A stretch of DNA of 64,000 nt, from positions 1-64,000 of the forward strand of contig JBHLME010000001.1 in NCBI GenBank assembly GCA_048938445.1, read 5' to 3'. Below the pieces are notes generated by a model that did no database searches, was not told the origin of the DNA, and worked only from the letters and a program-made list of their open reading frames with translations. The translations under genes were made by a program, and so were the position numbers. The DNA is from Promethearchaeota archaeon. GTDB lineage: Archaea; Asgardarchaeota; Lokiarchaeia; Sigyniarchaeales; SOKP01. Below are positions 20,552 to 29,361 of the stretch, one piece after another (position 1 is the first letter of the stretch; each line of letters begins with the position of its first letter).

Positions 20552-21865
20552 ATGATGAGAACAATTTTTCAATCAATGCTAATTAGAAAAATCGGTCTTT
20601 GGGGATTATTTACATTTAATTTGCTAGCCGCTTATTACATTGGCTTTATTATTTCCTCGATAAATAATCCTATTGGTTTCATTTTTGGTTCTCTAATATT
20701 ATCTGTTTTATTAATGATAAAACTCTTGGTAACCATATTCTATATGAAAAAATCAAAAATTCTCCTTTTAAAAAGAATCATAGTATGGTTAATGCTTCTT
20801 ACAAATACAATTTTTGCTTTTTTAATTGGTTTTACCATTCCTACGATGCAAACCCCAAATAGAGATAATATGGGGTATGTTATGGTTCCACTTCTAATTG
20901 TTCTTAATTATATTATAGTTGAGAGATTTCACTTTTACCTTAAAAAAAAAAATGGTGAAAAAACTAATAATTTTCCCAAATATAATGGAAAAAAAAAAAT
21001 AAGGAAACCTATAATAGAATATGATAGTAAAAAATATCAATTTTCAATAATCTCAATTATAATTTTAGGGATTGGCGCACCCTTATTAGCTTGGTTAATT
21101 TATTTATTTTTTGACAACTATACTAATTATTGGTTACATGAAATTGTTGTAAAACAAACTGCTATCTTTCTCAAATTATTATTCAACATGAATGTCGAAG
21201 TTGTCTATACTCCAATTGGTTTATATCATTGGGGTTTTTATTTTCCATCAGGGGGTATTAATGATATTCATTTACAATATTCTGTTATACAGTTTGAAAC
21301 CTTTTGCACTGGTATACAAGCAATCTGCGTGTTTGCCGGAATAATTATATTCACACCTCATTCTAAAGACCTAAGAACAAAAAAGGATATGATTTGGAGA
21401 AAAACCAAGTCCCTCATTGTTTCCTCGTTATTATTTTATATTGTAAATATAATTCGAATGTTAATCCAATTACAACTATACTATATCGGGTATCTTTGGG
21501 AGGATATTCATGTCTCAATAAGCGCTGCAAGTTCATTTATCGCCGCAATCATAGTGCTTTTACTCCATAAATGGATCCCAGAATTTATTATATCAATTAT
21601 TTACGTAGGAACGCTCATAAGTGAACCTATAAAAGCAAAAAGAAAAGAAAGGGTCATGAGTGAAATTAATACTATAAATAAAGTAAATCTTAATCTAATA
21701 AGAAAGGCATTGGGGATGAAGTCTAAAATTTTTAATGAAAAATTCAGAGAAATGGCGAAAAACTATAATTTTGAAATTAAAGAACCATACTTGATCGTAC
21801 CAAATGAGCAAAAAGAGGATTTTTTTGAAGCATTTGATAACAAATTTAAACAAGATTCAAAATAA
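20552..21865 (+). CDS. Exosortase/archaeosortase family protein with extra N-terminal TM block and C-terminal soluble domain
   Basis: Polytopic; Cys in FETFCTG, Arg in VNIIRM and His in WEDIH, in exosortase order and spacing. Confidence 0.85.
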   Translation: MMRTIFQSMLIRKIGLWGLFTFNLLAAYYIGFIISSINNPIGFIFGSLILSVLLMIKLLVTIFYMKKSKILLLKRIIVWLMLLTNTIFAFLIGFTIPTMQTPNRDNMGYVMVPLLIVLNYIIVERFHFYLKKKNGEKTNNFPKYNGKKKIRKPIIEYDSKKYQFSIISIIILGIGAPLLAWLIYLFFDNYTNYWLHEIVVKQTAIFLKLLFNMNVEVVYTPIGLYHWGFYFPSGGINDIHLQYSVIQFETFCTGIQAICVFAGIIIFTPHSKDLRTKKDMIWRKTKSLIVSSLLFYIVNIIRMLIQLQLYYIGYLWEDIHVSISAASSFIAAIIVLLLHKWIPEFIISIIYVGTLISEPIKAKRKERVMSEINTINKVNLNLIRKALGMKSKIFNEKFREMAKNYNFEIKEPYLIVPNEQKEDFFEAFDNKFKQDSK

Positions 21866-21928: not shown

Positions 21929-23449
21929 CTAAGAAATATAACGCAATAATAACTCTTTATTTCGGTTTAGAAAATCATTTAATGAATTATCAATTTCTAT
22001 TTTTTTATTTTCATCATCAATCAGAATTAAAATAAACAATTCGTTTCCTAAAACAATGACTCGTTTTATTAGGATTACAGAATGAGAAATTTTAAAAAGA
22101 GCTTCTTCTTTTTTCAAAGCTTTGAACTTTGAGAATATTTTGTATATAATTGCAAATTGAGGAGCTGTTATCTCGAACACGTCACGTATTTTTCTCTCTT
22201 CATATTCTTCGGATTCTAAGGCAATTTCTTCGAATTCCAAGAATTCAGTAAGTAATACATAACTATTAGAATAATAATCTGCTAAAACTAATCCATCATC
22301 TGTCAAGATTAATGATAGGAATATCTTATTTTTCTCTGAAAAACCCTTGAGATTATAATTTATCATATCTCTATTAGGACTTAAATTCGAAATCCCGGAT
22401 GAAAATGCTCTTAATATGCTAAAAATAGAAAAAATGCTAGTTACATGAATTTCTGGATCTTCATCCCCACTTAATACTTTAATTTTCGATTTAGCCAATT
22501 GTATATTTTTTTGAATCTTTTTAGAATTTATAATATCTGGATCGGCTTTCGTTAACACGTATAAGATTGGTGTTTTTTGGTTAAAGTGAGACAATCTTTC
22601 TTTAATTTTTTTCAAATATTCGATGCTCTCATCAAATCGATCTTTATTTCTTACATCAATAAAAAAGAATAACAAATCTGCTTCATATAAATAAATCTTA
22701 GATTTACTAATATATCGTTCTCTGAATTTTGCTTGTCCTCCCAAATCCCATAAAGAGATGGTTGCACCCAATGCTTCTATTGTAGAAATGCTTGCACCTC
22801 GAGTAGGTTTTAAACCTATTAAGCGTGAATATTTACGATCTACAGTAAGTAAAAAGCTTGTTTTGCCCGCAGCATCAAGCCCTAAAAATATGATTTTTAA
22901 TTTTCTTTCACTAGTGATTGGTGCAATGGGAAATTTTTCTATTTTGATCATCTTTTCAAGAAGATCTATATAATGATGTTCCAACTCTTCTACTGGTCTA
23001 AAACCATTTATTATGTCCTCATCAAATTTAATAAAAAGATCAAAAATTATAGTTTGTATAGCTGAAATATTGTTATAAAGAAAACTTCGTTGATTTTCAT
23101 CAACCATTATTGCAAAGGCTGAAGGTATTGGATTGGTTTTTCCTTCAATCCATATGAAATGAAAAAAGGCAAGTGCTGTAATTTTAAAATCAGGATAGGG
23201 AATAATTGCAAAATATTTGACATTAGAGAAATTTTCATTTCTCGTAGCTACTTGATCTTCCATTAATAAACTTAACATTTTTATTGCCATTTGAGTATAA
23301 TCTCGTATGGTATATACTTGTTCCTCTGATTCTTTTTTTTCTTTGTCTGTGACTGGATTTGGAAAAGTATATTTTGGCATTGGACCAAATTCATCAAATG
23401 CAGCGAATAATATACATTTAATTATTGATTTTTTTAATAATTCCTTCAT
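21929..23449 (-). CDS. uDENN/longin-like + Arf/Rag-like GTPase + roadblock-like three-domain protein
   Basis: GLDAAGKT, PTRG, WDLGGQ, TKAD, TSIF; N-terminal FDEFGP.P; C-terminal ILTDDGLVLA roadblock-like start. Confidence 0.85.
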   Translation of the reverse strand: MKELLKKSIIKCILFAAFDEFGPMPKYTFPNPVTDKEKKESEEQVYTIRDYTQMAIKMLSLLMEDQVATRNENFSNVKYFAIIPYPDFKITALAFFHFIWIEGKTNPIPSAFAIMVDENQRSFLYNNISAIQTIIFDLFIKFDEDIINGFRPVEELEHHYIDLLEKMIKIEKFPIAPITSERKLKIIFLGLDAAGKTSFLLTVDRKYSRLIGLKPTRGASISTIEALGATISLWDLGGQAKFRERYISKSKIYLYEADLLFFFIDVRNKDRFDESIEYLKKIKERLSHFNQKTPILYVLTKADPDIINSKKIQKNIQLAKSKIKVLSGDEDPEIHVTSIFSIFSILRAFSSGISNLSPNRDMINYNLKGFSEKNKIFLSLILTDDGLVLADYYSNSYVLLTEFLEFEEIALESEEYEERKIRDVFEITAPQFAIIYKIFSKFKALKKEEALFKISHSVILIKRVIVLGNELFILILIDDENKKIEIDNSLNDFLNRNKELLLRYIS

Positions 23450-23543: not shown

Positions 23544-24530
23544 TTGATGTTAAAAAAAATTGCTCAAAACATACAGTTAAATAAAAATGTTCTTGAGAAA
23601 AAGGAAATAAATCCAATAGTTCAATTCATTAATAAAAATTCGTTTAAAAGTCCAAATATCTTTTCTGATATTGGAGAAGATTCAGCAACCATCAAGAATG
23701 ATGATAAATATATCCTTCTTACTACAGATCGTATTAAAACAGATTTTGTTGAAAATTTCCCTTTTGGAGCCGGTTTTAGCTCAATACTTGTGGGTGTAGA
23801 TGATATTTATTGTTGTGGAGGAAGACCTTTAGGAGCTAGCATAATTTTATCTTATCCGGATAAGACTAAAGGACAACAAATCATTGAAGGAATATGTGAA
23901 GGATCCAAGAGGTTTCGTGTTCCAATAATCCGTGGGCATACTAATACAAAGGGAAAATGTTACGAGTTAAGCTCTACAATGGTAGGTGAAATTAAGAAAA
24001 AAAATTATATTTCAGCAAAAAACGCTCAAGTAAATGATAAAATTATTTTTATAGTTGATGAGGACGGCAGAATAGGAAAAGCTAATAAGTTATATTGGGA
24101 TACAGTGACTTTTAAAAATTCAGAGGAAATCCTTAATAAACGAGAAGCTATGATTGAGGTTGCTGAAAAACAATTAGTCAATTGCTCAAAAGACATATCT
24201 AATGGGGGAATTTTTGGTACATTATACCAAATGATAAGGTATTCTAATGTTGGAGCAGATGTTAACATTAATAAGATTGAAATTCCAAAGAAACTGAGCG
24301 AAATAAATTATACTCTTGACATTTTTATTAATATGTATTTAACAACATCATTTATATTATCTGTTCCTGAAAAAAAATGTCAACAAGTTATTAAAATTTA
24401 CGAGAATCATGGATTAAAAGCAAATGTAATTGGTAATATAATAACTGAAGCTAATCTATTACGGATTAATAATGCAAAAGAATCCATTGATGTTCTTAAT
24501 TCTCAAAATTCTTTAAAAAATACCAAATAA
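23544..24530 (+). CDS. AIR-synthase/PurM-like protein (ThiL/SelD/HypE superfamily)
   Basis: GEDSA, DD....GG.P, VPII.GHT, SKDISNGG..GTL. Confidence 0.8.
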   Translation: MMLKKIAQNIQLNKNVLEKKEINPIVQFINKNSFKSPNIFSDIGEDSATIKNDDKYILLTTDRIKTDFVENFPFGAGFSSILVGVDDIYCCGGRPLGASIILSYPDKTKGQQIIEGICEGSKRFRVPIIRGHTNTKGKCYELSSTMVGEIKKKNYISAKNAQVNDKIIFIVDEDGRIGKANKLYWDTVTFKNSEEILNKREAMIEVAEKQLVNCSKDISNGGIFGTLYQMIRYSNVGADVNINKIEIPKKLSEINYTLDIFINMYLTTSFILSVPEKKCQQVIKIYENHGLKANVIGNIITEANLLRINNAKESIDVLNSQNSLKNTK

Positions 24531-24558: not shown

Positions 24559-24996
24559 TCAACTTACATTGTCATTCTTCAAACTTTTTATTGAAAAATA
24601 TTTTTTTACTTCATGTTTAAGAAAAAAATAAATAATGATTATAGCTAAAAAATGAATAGTAATTGGAATTAAATAGAAAAGATCTATCAGTAATAACAAT
24701 ACTAAGCTTGTAACCAACAATATTGATAAAACTCCTATAATAAATATTAATAAAAAACTGATATTTTTGAAATTATCATTTTCTTTTTGATGATGAATGA
24801 TATTATCAATAAAATATCTTAGAATAAAAAGGTCTAAAGTCAAAAATAGAAAAGGGAAAACTGTTTCTGAATCTGCAAAATCGATAAATAATGATAATAT
24901 CCAATATATTAAAAAAGTGACAAATATCGTGAATAATGGATAAAATACTTGTCGTTTTCTATTAATAATGTCTTTTTTAAACATAGATTCTCTCAA
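24559..24996 (-). CDS. Four-TM membrane protein, third gene of the sortase cassette (intact copy)
   Basis: Four hydrophobic segments; overlaps the 3' end of the sortase gene; homologous decayed copy at ~26375..26545. Confidence 0.65.
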   Translation of the reverse strand: MRESMFKKDIINRKRQVFYPLFTIFVTFLIYWILSLFIDFADSETVFPFLFLTLDLFILRYFIDNIIHHQKENDNFKNISFLLIFIIGVLSILLVTSLVLLLLIDLFYLIPITIHFLAIIIIYFFLKHEVKKYFSIKSLKNDNVS

Positions 24997-25534
24997 TTGA
25001 TTTCAGTTTTTTTTGAGTTATTAGTAAGTATATATAATAAATAGAAATTAATAATTCTGGAAACCATTTATGCAATAAATATGCAAATAACAGAGCTCCT
25101 ATAATAGCTGAGATAAAAAATAACGATTGATGGAAGAATTCAAAAGGAACTTCTTTAAAATTAAAAAATATTAAGAAAACAATCCGAAAACCATTTAGTA
25201 CATGTATTACTAAAACCGACGTAAATAAGATTTTTAATTTCCTCCATTTAAAATCCTTGTGAGTTGATGGATCTCTTGAAGAAGGGACAAAAGGTATTAT
25301 TGCAATGAAAATAATAAACACGTGTGCTCTAATACACGCTCCTGAAATTGCATAATTTTCATTAAAGGAATGTTTAGGTATAAAAATTATGGCTATTTGA
25401 GGAGTTCCAATAATCATTATTATAATAGATTTAGAAAAGAACAGATATTTTTTATTATGATAATTAAGTATTGGATATATATCCTCGGTATGATTTATAG
25501 TGGTTTTTATCATAGTTTTAAAAAATGGAATCAA
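24977..25534 (-). CDS. Archaeosortase paralog with ~47-aa in-frame internal deletion (possibly pseudogenising)
   Basis: Aligns with 26526..27203, but a 50-aa segment after GTP is replaced by QIA. Keeps Cys (SGACIRAH), Arg (NGFR) and His (FFHQ). Confidence 0.7.
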   Translation of the reverse strand: MIPFFKTMIKTTINHTEDIYPILNYHNKKYLFFSKSIIIMIIGTPQIAIIFIPKHSFNENYAISGACIRAHVFIIFIAIIPFVPSSRDPSTHKDFKWRKLKILFTSVLVIHVLNGFRIVFLIFFNFKEVPFEFFHQSLFFISAIIGALLFAYLLHKWFPELLISIYYIYLLITQKKLKSIERIYV

Positions 25535-25570
25535 AATTTTAATACTAAAAATAAAATTATTTAGTTAAAT

Positions 25571-26062
25571 TTAATATTTAACTTGATCTTTTTGTATACT
25601 TATATGATAACTATAGATGATCACTATTGAAATAACTATAAACACAGTTATTATTAAAAATGGTTCAAAACCAGGAACTTCTACATCTTCTAAAACACTA
25701 GACCAGTGTGCAGTAAATGCGTTACTAATTTGCTGAAAAATTAAATCTCCTATAGATTTAAATATTACATGAAAGAATAAAAAGAATGACCCAACAGCTG
25801 CTGCGAAACCTAAAATTAAACTAATTACGGCCAAACACTCTTTATCGCTAATATCTAAATTAACAGTCAAGATACCGAGAAGCCAAGGTATACCGATTAA
25901 AGGCATACATATAAAGAATGATCCTATAAAAGTACCTAAGACGTCGCTTTCCGGAATGTTAAATCCTCTAACTATTATTGCTGCAGTAATGATACTGGTA
26001 ATTGTCAAAACTGTGAAATATATACTCAAATGAATTGAAAGTCGTTTATGATCTACTACCAT
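25571..26062 (-). CDS. Polytopic membrane protein with VPGF-type C-terminal sorting signal (copy 2)
   Basis: Three TM helices, then LEDVEVPGFE + TM + short charged tail; paralog of 27219..27767. Confidence 0.75.
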   Translation of the reverse strand: MVVDHKRLSIHLSIYFTVLTITSIITAAIIVRGFNIPESDVLGTFIGSFFICMPLIGIPWLLGILTVNLDISDKECLAVISLILGFAAAVGSFFLFFHVIFKSIGDLIFQQISNAFTAHWSSVLEDVEVPGFEPFLIITVFIVISIVIIYSYHISIQKDQVKY

Positions 26063-26374
26063 TTGAATTTCACTTGAAATTAAAATTTTTATTATATGGA
26101 TTTTATTTACTTCTATTGATAAGATATTAGATAATTATTAGAAGGATTATATAAAAATTTTACATAATTGTCAGATTATTAAAAAAATTTCTTCACACAA
26201 TTTTTGCTATATAGAATGTTATTTTAGGAAATGAAATATTTTAGGTCATAACTTATAATTATTTGAAATCAATATATACTAGGTCAATATTCTAATGAAT
26301 AAAGAAAAAATACTATTCATATTAACTAAAATAATTACTCCAACTATTTCCATTTGAAATTTTATTGTGTTATT

Positions 26375-26545
26375 TAAAGGTCTAAAGTGAAAAATAAAAG
26401 AGGAATGACTGTAATCATATCTGCAAATTCGATAAATAATTATAATGTCCAATATATTAAAAAAATGATAACAATCGTTGATAATGGATAATATATTCGT
26501 CGTTTTCCATTAATGATGACCTTTTTTAAACTTGAATATTTTCAA
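26375..26545 (-). pseudogene. Decayed copy of the four-TM gene 24559..24996
   Basis: DNA aligns with ~24830..24996. ATG changed to AAG, one extra base after TTT AAA AAA, TCA changed to TAA at 26440..26442, second stop after GAC CTT. Confidence 0.75.
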
Positions 26546-27203
26546 TTGATTTTAGTCTTTTTTGAGTTATTAGTGGATAAATGTAATACATAGAAATAAA
26601 TAATTCTGGTAGCCATTTATGTAATAAATATGCAAAAAAAAGGGCTCCTATAATAGCAGAGATAAAAAATAGCGACTGATGGATAAATTCAAAAGGAACT
26701 CCATTAAAATTAAAAAATATTAAAAAGACAATCCGAAAAACATTTAGTACATGTATTACTAAAATCGATGTAAATAAGGTTTTTAATTTCCTCCATTTAA
26801 AATCCTTGTGAGTTGATGGATCTCTTGAAGAAGGGACAAAAAGTACTATTGCTATGAAAATACTAAACACGTGTGCTCCAATACACGCTCCTGAAATTAT
26901 ATAATTTCCATTAAAAGGATGGTTTGGTATATAAATTATTGGGTATGAGTCATTCTCTAAATTAAGAATTAATTCTGCTTCTAAGTTTAGCATGTTATTT
27001 AGTAAAAAAATTATCTGTCTTGAAATCAAGTCATATAACCAATAATTAATTCTCATATTAAGAAAAAAATAAAGAAATATTGATAATATGGGTGTTCCAA
27101 TAAAAAAAATTATAATAGATTTAGAAAAAAAAAGATAATTTTTACCATTATATTTTAGGATTGGATTTTCAATATTGTTTTGATTTGTTGTTATTCTTCT
27201 CAT
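26526..27203 (-). CDS. Exosortase/archaeosortase family protein (intact cassette copy)
   Basis: Cys in ISGACIG, Arg in LNVFRI, His in FIHQ. Shares PI..Y..K.Y.F, NYWL, WRK.K and LHKW.PE with 20552..21865. Confidence 0.85.
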   Translation of the reverse strand: MRRITTNQNNIENPILKYNGKNYLFFSKSIIIFFIGTPILSIFLYFFLNMRINYWLYDLISRQIIFLLNNMLNLEAELILNLENDSYPIIYIPNHPFNGNYIISGACIGAHVFSIFIAIVLFVPSSRDPSTHKDFKWRKLKTLFTSILVIHVLNVFRIVFLIFFNFNGVPFEFIHQSLFFISAIIGALFFAYLLHKWLPELFISMYYIYPLITQKRLKSIENIQV

Positions 27204-27218
27204 GACTTTAAAATTTGA

Positions 27219-27767
27219 TTATAGTATTCTGAAACTTATCATATTAGGAAACTGAGTAAAACTAATTATTGAACTAGAGCTCTTGGTAACTTTTCTATGA
27301 TAACTATAGATAATTATCATTGAAATTATAATGAATAAGGTTATTAATAAAAGCAGCTCAAAACCAGGAACCTCAACATCTTCAAGAACATTCTCAAAAA
27401 ATTGAGTAAAAGCATTATTAATCGCTTCATTTACTCTCGTAGATATATAGTCTCCTATTGATTTAAATGCAGTTGCAAACAAGCTAATTAACAGCAAGGG
27501 TACACCAATTACTATTCCAAGTATTACTCCAATCACTACACCAACAACTTCAATACCTTCTAAATTAACTCCAAATACCGCGGCAAGCCAAATTAAACCA
27601 ATTACTAACATGCATACAAAATATAATCCAATAAAAGTACCTAAAATACTTTCTGGAGGTAAAGCAAAACCAAACACTACTATTGTAGTAAGCAAAATAT
27701 TAGCAAGAGTTACTACAATGAAATAAGCACCCAAGTGTATGTATAATCTTTTATGACTTTCAGACAT
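27219..27767 (-). CDS. Polytopic membrane protein with VPGF-type C-terminal sorting signal (copy 1)
   Basis: Start moved to ATG 27767 (MSESHKRL) by alignment with paralog MVVDHKRL. Three TMs, then LEDVEVPGFE + TM + HRK. Confidence 0.75.
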   Translation of the reverse strand: MSESHKRLYIHLGAYFIVVTLANILLTTIVVFGFALPPESILGTFIGLYFVCMLVIGLIWLAAVFGVNLEGIEVVGVVIGVILGIVIGVPLLLISLFATAFKSIGDYISTRVNEAINNAFTQFFENVLEDVEVPGFELLLLITLFIIISMIIIYSYHRKVTKSSSSIISFTQFPNMISFRIL

Positions 27768-27995: not shown

Positions 27996-28430
27996 ATGGT
28001 TAATGATCTAATGAATAACAAAAAATTTTCAAAAATTTTAACTGGAATGATTTATCTAGCAGTTTTAATTTTAATAGTCCCTTCTATAATTAAACTTTTC
28101 ACTATTCTACATATTTCTAGGATAATTATCTTAAATCAATGGGTATCACTCTTTTTTGCTATTCTTTTCTTAACCTTAGATATTACAAGAATGTTTGTTA
28201 TAATCATATTAGTTCTTTTAATACCATTTATTTTATATGTTAAAAAAAAGTATAAATTGTTCTTATTAATTCCATTATTTCTTGATTTTATCTTAACAAT
28301 TGTTTTTTTAGTAAGGTTTATTGTCTTCATTTGTTTCGCACCACTATATTCTTTTATAAGCTTTCCATTTATATTGTTATCATTAATAATATTGAAGATA
28401 ATATCAAAAAAACAAGAAAAAGCAAGATGA
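27996..28430 (+). CDS. Small four-TM membrane protein
   Basis: Highly hydrophobic ORF with ATG start and basic C-terminus, divergent from the cassette. Confidence 0.5.
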   Translation: MVNDLMNNKKFSKILTGMIYLAVLILIVPSIIKLFTILHISRIIILNQWVSLFFAILFLTLDITRMFVIIILVLLIPFILYVKKKYKLFLLIPLFLDFILTIVFLVRFIVFICFAPLYSFISFPFILLSLIILKIISKKQEKAR

Positions 28431-28434
28431 AATT

Positions 28435-29361
28435 TTAAAGTAGTATTATTAATAACAAAAGCATTAACCAAAATAAAATCCAAATTAGAAAGAGGGAAAA
28501 ATAAAGAAATAATGAAATTTTCCTTTTCCATTTATCATTTTTAATATTAACTATTATTATTAGGACTATTAAACAAATGAATAATAAATGAGGCATTTGT
28601 ATTAATCGCCAGATAATTAAAATAAAATTTACTATAATAGAATCGGTTAACTCTCCCGTAATATTTAGCCAATTTGAAACCAATTGCGTGAAATAATTAA
28701 AATTAATCATGTATGGAATACAAAAAATAACAAATGGAAGGATATAATAAAGGATATTTTTCAATTTAATTTTTCTAATGACAATTAAAGACACTGGAAA
28801 TATTACAATAATTGTTTTAAACATTGCAAGAGCAAAAAAAAATCCAGATAATAACTTTCTCTCCTTTTTTAATTGTAAATATGAAAAGAAAAGAAATAAT
28901 AATATCAACCAATTTGTATTGTTGAGATACATATCAGCAAAATATCCAAGACTACAAAAAATGAAAAAAAATAACATGTCTTCTTTATTCTGAGTTATTT
29001 TTTCTATATTTAATACAATATAGATAGTTGTAAATAGTCTTAGGACATCCCAAACATAAACTGAAATATCTAAAGGGATGAGATAAAAAGGAAAAAATAT
29101 GAAATACCAATAATATAGATAAATCATTTTGTCACCTGTTAAAGGATTTTCTTTATAGATATCGAAGATTCCGTTATCCATTAAAGTGTATAATGTTTTA
29201 AAATTTAAGTCTCGATTACGAATTAGAACATAAAAGAAGAGGTTATCTGAAGGAGAAACTATTTGAATAAAATAAAAAATTATTCTTAAAATAATTAAAA
29301 TAATAGTTATGACAATGATTATAATTAGAAAGATGTTTTTATATTTCTTTAATTCTTCCAT
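28435..29361 (-). CDS. GT87-like (GT-C fold) polyprenyl-sugar-dependent glycosyltransferase
   Basis: After TM1: D...Y...IY...Y.Y.....F.PF..IP....W; then D...NN.N and G...ALA.FK, the GT87/PimE-like pattern. Confidence 0.7.
   Translation of the reverse strand: MEELKKYKNIFLIIIIVITIILIILRIIFYFIQIVSPSDNLFFYVLIRNRDLNFKTLYTLMDNGIFDIYKENPLTGDKMIYLYYWYFIFFPFYLIPLDISVYVWDVLRLFTTIYIVLNIEKITQNKEDMLFFFIFCSLGYFADMYLNNTNWLILLFLFFSYLQLKKERKLLSGFFFALAMFKTIIVIFPVSLIVIRKIKLKNILYYILPFVIFCIPYMINFNYFTQLVSNWLNITGELTDSIIVNFILIIWRLIQMPHLLFICLIVLIIIVNIKNDKWKRKISLFLYFSLFLIWILFWLMLLLLIILL

Follow-up and report, generated by a model that had tools for sequence, protein, structure and literature searches.

Genes at the locus

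The stretch analysed here, called the window, comprises 64,000 nucleotides (nt) of contig JBHLME010000001.1 (positions 1 to 64,000) from the Promethearchaeota archaeon assembly GCA_048938445.1, a member of the Lokiarchaeia. It carries a cassette in which a dedicated archaeosortase is paired with a small, hydrophobic substrate ending in a sorting tail of the PGF type. The pair is accompanied by a GT87-like glycosyltransferase and by F3 and F4, two predicted proteins with four transmembrane (TM) helices. Substrate and sortase are present twice in tandem on the minus strand, as S1-X1 followed by S2-X2. The features of the locus are (aa, amino acids):

27219-27767, minus strand: S1, substrate, 182 aa; three TM segments, acidic amphipathic helix, VPGFE, TM segment, tail
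27357-27389, minus strand: VLEDVEVPGFE block of S1, 11 codons
26526-27203, minus strand: X1, intact dedicated archaeosortase, ArtH paralog, 225 aa; Cys107, Arg157, His175
About 26360-26533, minus strand: F4 pseudogene; tblastn 66% over 50 aa
25571-26062, minus strand: S2, second substrate copy, 163 aa; fast-diverging, no zinc ribbon
25664-25696, minus strand: VLEDVEVPGFE block of S2, 11 codons
24977-25513, minus strand: X2, probably disabled sortase copy, 178 aa; triad residues still there
24559-24984, minus strand: F4, intact predicted 4-TM protein, 141 aa, no known family
27996-28430, plus strand: F3, predicted 4-TM protein, 144 aa, one invariant Cys, no known family
28435-29361, minus strand: GT87-like GT-C glycosyltransferase, 308 aa, cassette-specific subfamily
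20552-21865, plus strand: housekeeping archaeosortase H (ArtH), context outside the cassette; NF041736 296.7 bits (cut-off 200) and ArtH_Nterm

The original prediction, made from the letters of this DNA, described a duplicated unit of substrate, sortase and 4-TM protein separated by short gaps or overlaps. The tandem substrate-sortase copies are indeed there, with gaps of 15 nt (S1/X1) and 57 nt (S2/X2) and an overlap of 8 nt between X2 and F4. The duplication is nonetheless not of three working genes, as the first 4-TM gene is a pseudogene and X2 has lost 47 residues. The region first noted ended at 27767 and missed F3 and the GT87-like gene; with them, the cassette reaches 29361, and it is these two genes that alter the reading of the locus most. 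F3 is oriented divergently from the substrate and convergently on the GT87-like gene.

S1 and S2 each show the described series of three hydrophobic segments, motif, further segment and short basic tail. The block which they share, first given as LEDVEVPGFE, is 11 aa long (VLEDVEVPGFE) and differs between the copies by synonymous nucleotide changes only. Across the whole family, however, just E[VI]PGFE is invariant. The rest of the two proteins has diverged as stated, with 44% identity (53/121) upstream of the block and 48% (78/162) overall.

Conservation of the five-gene cassette

The survey covered 161 genomes of the class, and neighbouring genes were clustered over 21 cassette loci. A block composed of F4, the GT87-like gene, F3 (on the opposite strand), substrate and sortase recurs among these loci. 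The substrate profile matches 26 of the 161 genomes; in 23 of them the match spans the sorting tail, and in three it covers the N-terminal half only. The sortase subfamily (at least 279 bits) was found in 22 genomes plus one in which the gene is cut at a contig end, and these are the same 23. Substrate and sortase are adjacent in all 23, in agreement with the proposed pairing of a dedicated archaeosortase with a membrane-embedded target. The other members follow closely. F4 occurs in 23 genomes, 22 of which have the pair, and F3 in 25 (21 with the pair). The cassette-type GT87 (above 400 bits, the next group scoring below 301) occurs in 22 genomes, 21 of them among the 23. Most of the missing members fall at contig ends (G142, G144, G061).

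Metagenomes yielded 31 loci, with much redundancy among them; in 29, the sortase comes next after the substrate. The order seen in the window (GT87, F3, substrate, sortase, F4) recurs in L131, L137 and L138, and substrate-sortase-F4 is found further in L127, L136 and L139. The three-gene order first noted in the window is therefore native to one subgroup. A scan of the phylum found the sortase subfamily in 22 of 400 genomes, all within this class. The median ratio of nonsynonymous to synonymous substitution rates (dN/dS) lies between 0.25 and 0.43 for all five genes (22-45 non-independent pairs each), with 0.43 for F3 and 0.35 for F4, and points to purifying selection. Pairwise distances of the five genes are correlated (Spearman 0.53-0.84), which kinship alone could produce.

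The substrate family

In its usual form, the substrate consists of a CxxC-CxxC zinc ribbon (29 of 31 members), three TM helices, a further helix, E[VI]PGFE, a last TM helix and a basic tail. The motif is invariant in 31/31 homologs, so that the conservation looked for in PGF was found. It is followed by Pro in 30/31, S1 having Leu instead, and by a TM helix and a basic C-terminal tail in 31/31 (tail mean 3.1 Lys/Arg). The motif and the last helix are the most conserved parts (67% vs 22-52% elsewhere). S1 and S2 are the two members without a zinc ribbon. In the tree, their nearest zinc-ribbon forms are L127, L128 and L131, and the ribbon was therefore lost in this lineage. A Cys at the start of the anchor helix, present in 26/31, is absent from S1.

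The pattern of a signal peptide with an exported soluble domain is not seen. Instead, one to three TM helices stand at the N-terminus. Charges over 25 sequences amount to 3.6 Lys/Arg before TM1, 0.1 in loop 1 and 0.6 in loop 2, then 0.8 Lys/Arg against 4.9 Asp/Glu in the spacer and 3.1 Lys/Arg in the tail. By this charge bias, the N-terminus is predicted inside, the motif outside and the tail inside. The 24 residues preceding the motif are amphipathic in 25/25 sequences (at most 4% of 300 shuffles reach the value), with a net charge of 0 to -4, never net positive. This helix has a hydrophobic residue at about every fourth position, a spacing also typical of lipid-binding amphipathic helices or right-handed coiled coils.

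The distance from the TM3 Pro to the motif is 35-74 residues, and the spacer ranges from 12 to 65 residues across the family. The minimal forms (76-86 aa) retain no more than a single anchor helix, a short spacer and the tail with its sorting signal, and lie by the GT87 gene or in the complete operon. For instance, the G061 operon, ordered substrate, sortase, F4, GT87, encodes a substrate of 85 aa with a single anchor helix. The L140 form has 76 aa, of which about 12 make up the spacer, and its gene immediately precedes the GT87 gene; P0064 and P0055 are similar minimal forms. Judging from these sequences, anchor helix, short spacer and sorting tail form the conserved core, to which the ribbon and TM1-2 are additions. 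The family is also small and lineage-bound, as a profile search among 1.84 billion representatives gave 12 clusters at E<=1e-30 and thereafter mostly matches to the zinc ribbon only. No substrate relative was found in viral contigs.

The sortases

Both X1 (42 bits) and X2 (33.4 bits) exceed the cut-off of 23 for TIGR04178. With the archaeosortase H model NF041736 they reach 132.7 and 73 bits, below the cut-off of 200. The expected family match thus holds at the general level and fails for the specific model. X1 has no ArtH N-terminal domain. The Cys/Arg/His triad noted from the start in both copies is invariant in 17/17 sortases and kept in X2. In X1, the Cys stands at the end of an acidic loop, and the TM2-TM3 loop that comes next is basic. 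The catalytic Cys is therefore predicted outside, and the positive-inside rule places motif and Cys on the same outer face, as the proposed pairing demands.

In a sortase tree (a quick version with 61 rows and midpoint root), X1, X2 and the cassette sortases fall in a 31-row accessory clade with a Shimodaira-Hasegawa-like approximate likelihood ratio (SH-aLRT) support of 99, apart from housekeeping ArtH. Open reading frames below 150 aa (L062, L066) and cassette sortases below 170 aa were left out of it. The housekeeping ArtH of the window groups with the housekeeping copies of its relatives. Among ten sister-sortase loci, seven have a neighbouring gene ending in PGF[ED]. These seven products are three ordinary secreted proteins (176-510 aa), one 92-aa protein with signal peptide and linker, and three membrane-anchored short-spacer proteins. 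The ordinary secreted proteins beside sister sortases (L063, L065, L067) carry the same PGF[ED]P tail, which is the strongest evidence that this tail acts as a real sorting signal. Membrane-anchored targets recur in the accessory clade.

There are five sortase genes in this genome. One archaeosortase paralog (G000:C11:5860-6885) lies beside a 1700-aa PKD-repeat surface protein ending SPGFE-TM, and another (G000:C199:17347-18102) beside a 1293-aa PKD-repeat surface protein ending ATPG-TM.

The GT87-like glycosyltransferase

The window copy scores 24.7 bits with Pfam GT87 (PF09594), just under the cut-off of 25, and 15 of 18 homologs match it at E<=0.01 (best 1.3e-10). Its structural model (predicted local distance difference test, pLDDT, 74; predicted template modelling score, pTM, 0.79) was compared with known structures by Foldseek. 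The top six matches were PimE, PIG-U (three entries), GPI mannosyltransferase I (GPI, glycosylphosphatidylinositol) and ALG9, none at E<=0.001. On realignment, a second look at Foldseek's 96 chains only, the Z-scores were 13.5 for PimE (root mean square deviation 4.4, 253 residues), 12.8 for PIG-U and 12.7 for GPI mannosyltransferase I, and the first row outside GT-C had 5.3. A sequence search of the PDB with the GT87 profile gave 0 matches. The model thus suggests a GT-C fold with an acidic residue after TM1.

Asp51 after TM1 and Lys182 are invariant in the subfamily. In PimE, D58 and K195 are both required for activity (PMC12041525; statements on published systems follow the available parts of the cited papers). 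The two pairs are spaced alike, which is a positional match and not a residue-level superposition. PimE, PIG-M/Gpi14 and PIG-U, from glycolipid and GPI-anchor pathways, share the GT-C fold and have the Asp after TM1 and the later Lys in matching positions, yet identity is 10-12% (PMC12041525). A predicted complex of GT87-like protein, X1 and F4 scored 0.00 and carries no weight either way. Another GT87-like paralog of this genome (G000:C175:8199-9137) stands in a glycosylation locus with GT2, flippase-like and radical SAM genes, as identified by inspection of the sequences.

Lipid supply

ArtA of Haloferax takes the C-terminal helix off its targets, which receive a lipid (PMC6098224). The two events are coupled; no cleavage takes place when PssA or PssD is missing, and the nucleophile is proposed to be archaetidylethanolamine (PMC7157517). 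Phosphatidylserine decarboxylase (PSD, PF02666), the family of the PssD on which ArtA depends, was not found in this genome, which is 96.5% complete. It was found in only 2 of 134 other genomes of the same family (f1), compared with 15 of the 26 that lie outside this family. The distribution of GT87-like paralogs is the reverse, with 107/134 inside and 0/26 outside. Family f1 thus has the housekeeping ArtH yet almost no PSD, together with a near-universal GT87-like family.

The genome also encodes inositol-phosphate synthases, six CDP-alcohol phosphotransferases, a weak PssA-like gene and a PIG-L-family gene. With these genes present, inositol lipids and serine lipids are both possible acceptors. 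The single PIG-L-family deacetylase gene lies directly downstream of a Loki-CTERM protein gene (G000:C36:11077-13546).

Decay of the duplication in the window

The first F4 copy has lost its ATG and contains stop codons, and it ceases to resemble F4 beyond about 55 codons. Over 25582-26809, which includes this pseudogene, a second sample yielded a contig with 0 differences. X2 carries a 141-nt in-frame deletion (47 aa) with its junction at 25393/25394, which removes the last part of TM1 and the greater part of the outer loop. The junction is bridged by a contig from the possible source run; in a contig of another study, only 27 nt lie on one side, below the 31-nt rule. X2 moreover has Arg at two residues past the catalytic Cys, a position occupied by Ala in 16 of 17 relatives. 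In the quick sortase tree its branch measures 0.47 vs 0.074 for X1. Likewise, S2 is sister to S1 with a branch of 1.41 vs 0.33.

The 3' parts of the two sortase genes are 86.7% identical over 564 nt (24828-25390 vs 26376-26939), with a synonymous divergence (dS) of 0.33, whereas dS is 1.39 between the S1 and S2 substrates. This difference suggests gene conversion between the sortase copies. Because of the loss of the F4 copy and the deletion in X2, one working set is probably left in the window, namely X1, F4 and one or both substrates. An independent tandem duplication in L057 (G130:C214:7910-10360) reads substrate, broken sortase, substrate, intact sortase.

X1 is the sole intact cassette sortase of this genome; its targets may include, besides S1 and S2, two zinc-ribbon paralogs encoded elsewhere. 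These paralogs, L001 (G000:C109:33324-34058) and L002 (G000:C95:40693-41457), are intact, with a longer spacer and no adjoining sortase. They group with L136-L138, not with S1/S2, and may be extra targets of X1 or stem from the 8% contamination of the assembly. For bench work, the intact cassette of a relative is preferable to the decaying copy of the window.

Accessory genes and flanks

No Pfam family matches the window copies of F3 or F4, and an Atlas search gave no usable match for F3 or for the membrane part of the substrate. The possibility that F3 or F4 is a split-off ArtH N-terminal domain was considered, but a hidden Markov model (HMM) scan gave no ArtH_Nterm match in either. The role of chaperone or immunity factor first proposed for the 4-TM gene is neither favoured nor disfavoured by these results. 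The low GC content of the cassette (23.5% vs about 29%) was set aside as evidence of horizontal transfer because membrane-protein genes are AT-rich.

The housekeeping ArtH lies 3 kb from the cassette. Between them are a 506-aa Rag/Arf-like small-GTPase fusion protein (21929-23449, minus strand) and a methanogenesis-marker-2-like gene of the AIR synthase family (23544-24530, plus strand). In genus g11 (L043, L045, L049-L054), the cassette is just upstream of genes whose sequences resemble grpE, dnaK and dnaJ; other genera have other flanks.

Proposed function and alternatives

The preferred reading, to which a probability of about 0.5 is given, is that of an accessory cassette of Loki-type Asgard archaea whose sortase swaps the last helix of the substrate for a lipid, so that the protein is pinned at both ends. 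X1 would cleave the membrane protein encoded next to it at PGF, on the side predicted to face outwards, and a lipid would take the place of the last TM helix. The product would then be held by one to three N-terminal helices and a C-terminal lipid, and the short acidic amphipathic helix between these anchors would rest on the outer leaflet. The GT87-like enzyme would add a sugar to the lipid that becomes, or carries, the anchor, with F3 and F4 as accessory subunits. The protein would thus be a membrane staple or a glycolipid carrier, not an exported domain. By analogy with ArtA, cleavage of the substrate by the cassette sortase is highly likely, and if it is cleaved, the lipid swap is likely too. 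An action of the GT87-like enzyme on the anchor lipid is put forward tentatively, with the odds somewhat against it. The genes present, their co-occurrence, the conserved motif and triad and the decay of the window's copies are observations; topology, cleavage, lipid swap and the part played by GT87 are inferred.

As the spacer can be as short as about a dozen residues, what matters in the system is likely the group that is attached, and the linked GT87-like enzyme is the best candidate to build or decorate it. A spacer bridging two membranes is unlikely, being too short and amphipathic to suggest this.

Among the alternatives, release of a lipopeptide is an unlikely one. The anchor helix would be a signal peptide, and signal peptidase and sortase would free an acidic amphipathic, C-lipidated peptide of 12-60 residues acting as surfactant, signal or antimicrobial, the 4-TM genes being helpers or immunity factors. 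The minimal forms can be read as signal peptide, peptide and sorting tail, small residues follow the anchor helix in most homologs, and the distribution across genera is patchy. In the common form, however, two helices precede the anchor helix, which spans about 20 residues. Spacers differ in length among members and are as short as about 12 residues in L140, which speaks against one defined active peptide, and no exporter accompanies the cassette.

An improbable explanation is a regulatory first cleavage that transfers no lipid and primes the release or degradation of the cytoplasmic zinc-ribbon part, in a manner resembling anti-sigma factors or regulated intramembrane proteolysis. It would account for the cytoplasmic ribbon in 29/31 members and for the near-lack of an ectodomain. 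Yet S1, S2 and the 76-86 aa forms have kept the motif without a ribbon, and no regulator or second protease recurs in the block over the 21 loci. Furthermore, ArtA cleavage depends on the lipid pathway (PMC7157517).

The substrate could also escape cleavage and serve as a pseudo-substrate or partner subunit, holding or regulating either the sortase or the glycosyltransferase. Strict one-to-one linkage equally fits a stable partner, and the Leu that S1 has in place of the Pro found after PGFE in 30/31 would suit it. The invariant triad and the occurrence of the same tail on ordinary secreted proteins beside sister sortases make this quite improbable.

Cyclic pilins and circular bacteriocins have both termini on the processing side, a pilin or saposin-like fold, linked secretion or ABC genes and, for bacteriocins, a cationic peptide. 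A sortase that cyclises, cross-links or polymerises a hydrophobic protein in this way, as the original prediction proposed, would be in keeping with the small size and the hydrophobic, helical character of the substrate, with an enzyme that may be a transpeptidase and with the 4-TM genes nearby; were the protein also cut in the outer loop behind TM1, a pilin-like hairpin with both ends outside would remain. The idea is nonetheless very improbable because the N-terminus is predicted cytoplasmic, opposite the acyl-enzyme, a hairpin is lacking in the one-anchor forms, the outside segment is acidic (net 0 to -4) with few Lys for cross-linking, and no transfer, secretion-system or ABC-exporter genes recur in the 21 cassette loci. 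Lipidation, offered beside it, stays the best reading among those options.

Several points weigh against the preferred reading of a lipid-for-helix swap. The first concern the sortase and its target. Cleavage and lipidation are carried over from Haloferax ArtA, not from the biochemistry of ArtH or X1, and X1 is not ArtH by the curated cut-off, though ArtH is its best-scoring family. The sorting tail is only borderline for the Loki-CTERM HMM (NF033507, cut-off 19.9): S1 scores 15.7 bits by hmmscan and 20.1 in a six-frame search, S2 has no match, and 2 of 31 family members match at E<=0.1. The genome holds seven Loki-CTERM proteins that score above the substrate tail. The predicted inner loop TM2-TM3 contains only 0.6 Lys/Arg, and the topology of TM1-2 is therefore a weak point. 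An AlphaFold model of the substrate has visible helices and a pTM of 0.35, unreliable as a fold. Foldseek with this poor model gave no match at E<=0.001; zinc ribbons came top, and no pilin or bacteriocin was among the matches listed. Because cassette loci supplied the sequences for the profiles, the high scores are partly circular; only G061, G142 and G144 did not contribute to the profiles of sortase, GT87 and 4-TM proteins.

The second group concerns the lipid. The GT87-like enzyme is linked to the pair by gene neighbourhood only and could act on a free lipid or another protein. Close GT87 paralogs without a cassette occur in 108/161 genomes, and the Foldseek E-values for the GT87-like model all exceed 0.5. 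PIG-U, which shares the fold, is a non-catalytic subunit. The opposite patterns of PSD and GT87 are one clade-level event, not a statistic. In G026 (66% complete), the substrate-sortase pair is present with PSD and no GT87 was found. Going by the weak PssA-like match, archaetidylserine could provide the amine instead.

A more far-reaching version is doubtful: a self-contained prokaryotic module resembling GPI anchoring, in which the enzyme with the PimE/PIG-M/PIG-U fold builds or presents an amino-sugar glycolipid and the archaeosortase transfers the protein onto it. This would give a tetherin-like, doubly anchored staple or bender of the outer leaflet in a lineage that would have lost the ethanolamine-lipid route of Haloferax.

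Relation to known systems and significance

The cassette sortase belongs to the exo/archaeosortase family and, by analogy, would work like ArtA with PGF-CTERM on a target that has no exported domain. As in Haloferax volcanii, a Cys/Arg/His enzyme meets a tail of PGF, TM helix and basic residues, with predicted removal of the helix and addition of a lipid (PMC6098224, PMC7157517). In contrast to ArtA, which has many targets, the cassette enzyme has one private target, already membrane-anchored, in which a spacer of 12-65 residues replaces the exported domain. The linked GT87-like and two 4-TM genes also set it apart. ArtH/Loki-CTERM is closest by score, as the best-scoring family for X1 with a tail at the cut-off in the same lineage, but X1 lies below the ArtH cut-off, has no N-terminal domain, falls in a separate accessory clade and coexists with the genome's own ArtH.

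One-to-one sorting systems are recognised by adjacency (10.1101/2023.06.07.544157). JDVT-CTERM/MrtJ, one of the systems described there, resembles the cassette in its tandem enzyme and target, its near one target per genome and its sporadic occurrence; the cassette differs in enzyme family, motif and membrane-embedded target (10.1101/2023.06.07.544157). In predicted topology only, the substrate is similar to tetherin/BST-2, with a cytoplasmic N-terminus, a TM helix, an outside helix and a C-terminal lipid (PMC3715405). The long dimeric ectodomain of tetherin is not matched, the cassette spacer being much shorter, amphipathic and likelier to lie on one membrane, and no homology is claimed. A literature search, which did not include the 2012 survey of these families or bioRxiv supplements, found no description of the cassette, ArtH or Loki-CTERM. 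Archaeosortases are, for their part, unrelated to the GPI transamidase Gpi8.

Archaeosortases are known for anchoring exported domains, so a target without such a domain would be a new use of the enzyme family. As there is no domain to export, the C-terminal swap itself would be the point. The near-absence of PSD in family f1 also raises the question of which lipid is behind ordinary Loki-CTERM anchoring there. With five genes and a natural minimal substrate of 76-85 aa, the cassette is small enough to be moved to a laboratory archaeon, where it could be asked which lipid Asgard sortases use. It could address, too, whether archaeosortases are one-step transpeptidases, a question called unresolved in 10.1101/2023.06.07.544157. 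According to one preprint, GPI-anchor synthesis and the transamidase complex go back to Asgard archaea (PMC12338589). The cassette may be a prokaryotic parallel of GPI anchoring, and if the linked GT-C enzyme supplies the lipid, the prokaryotes most closely related to eukaryotes would possess a system that transfers proteins to glycolipids.

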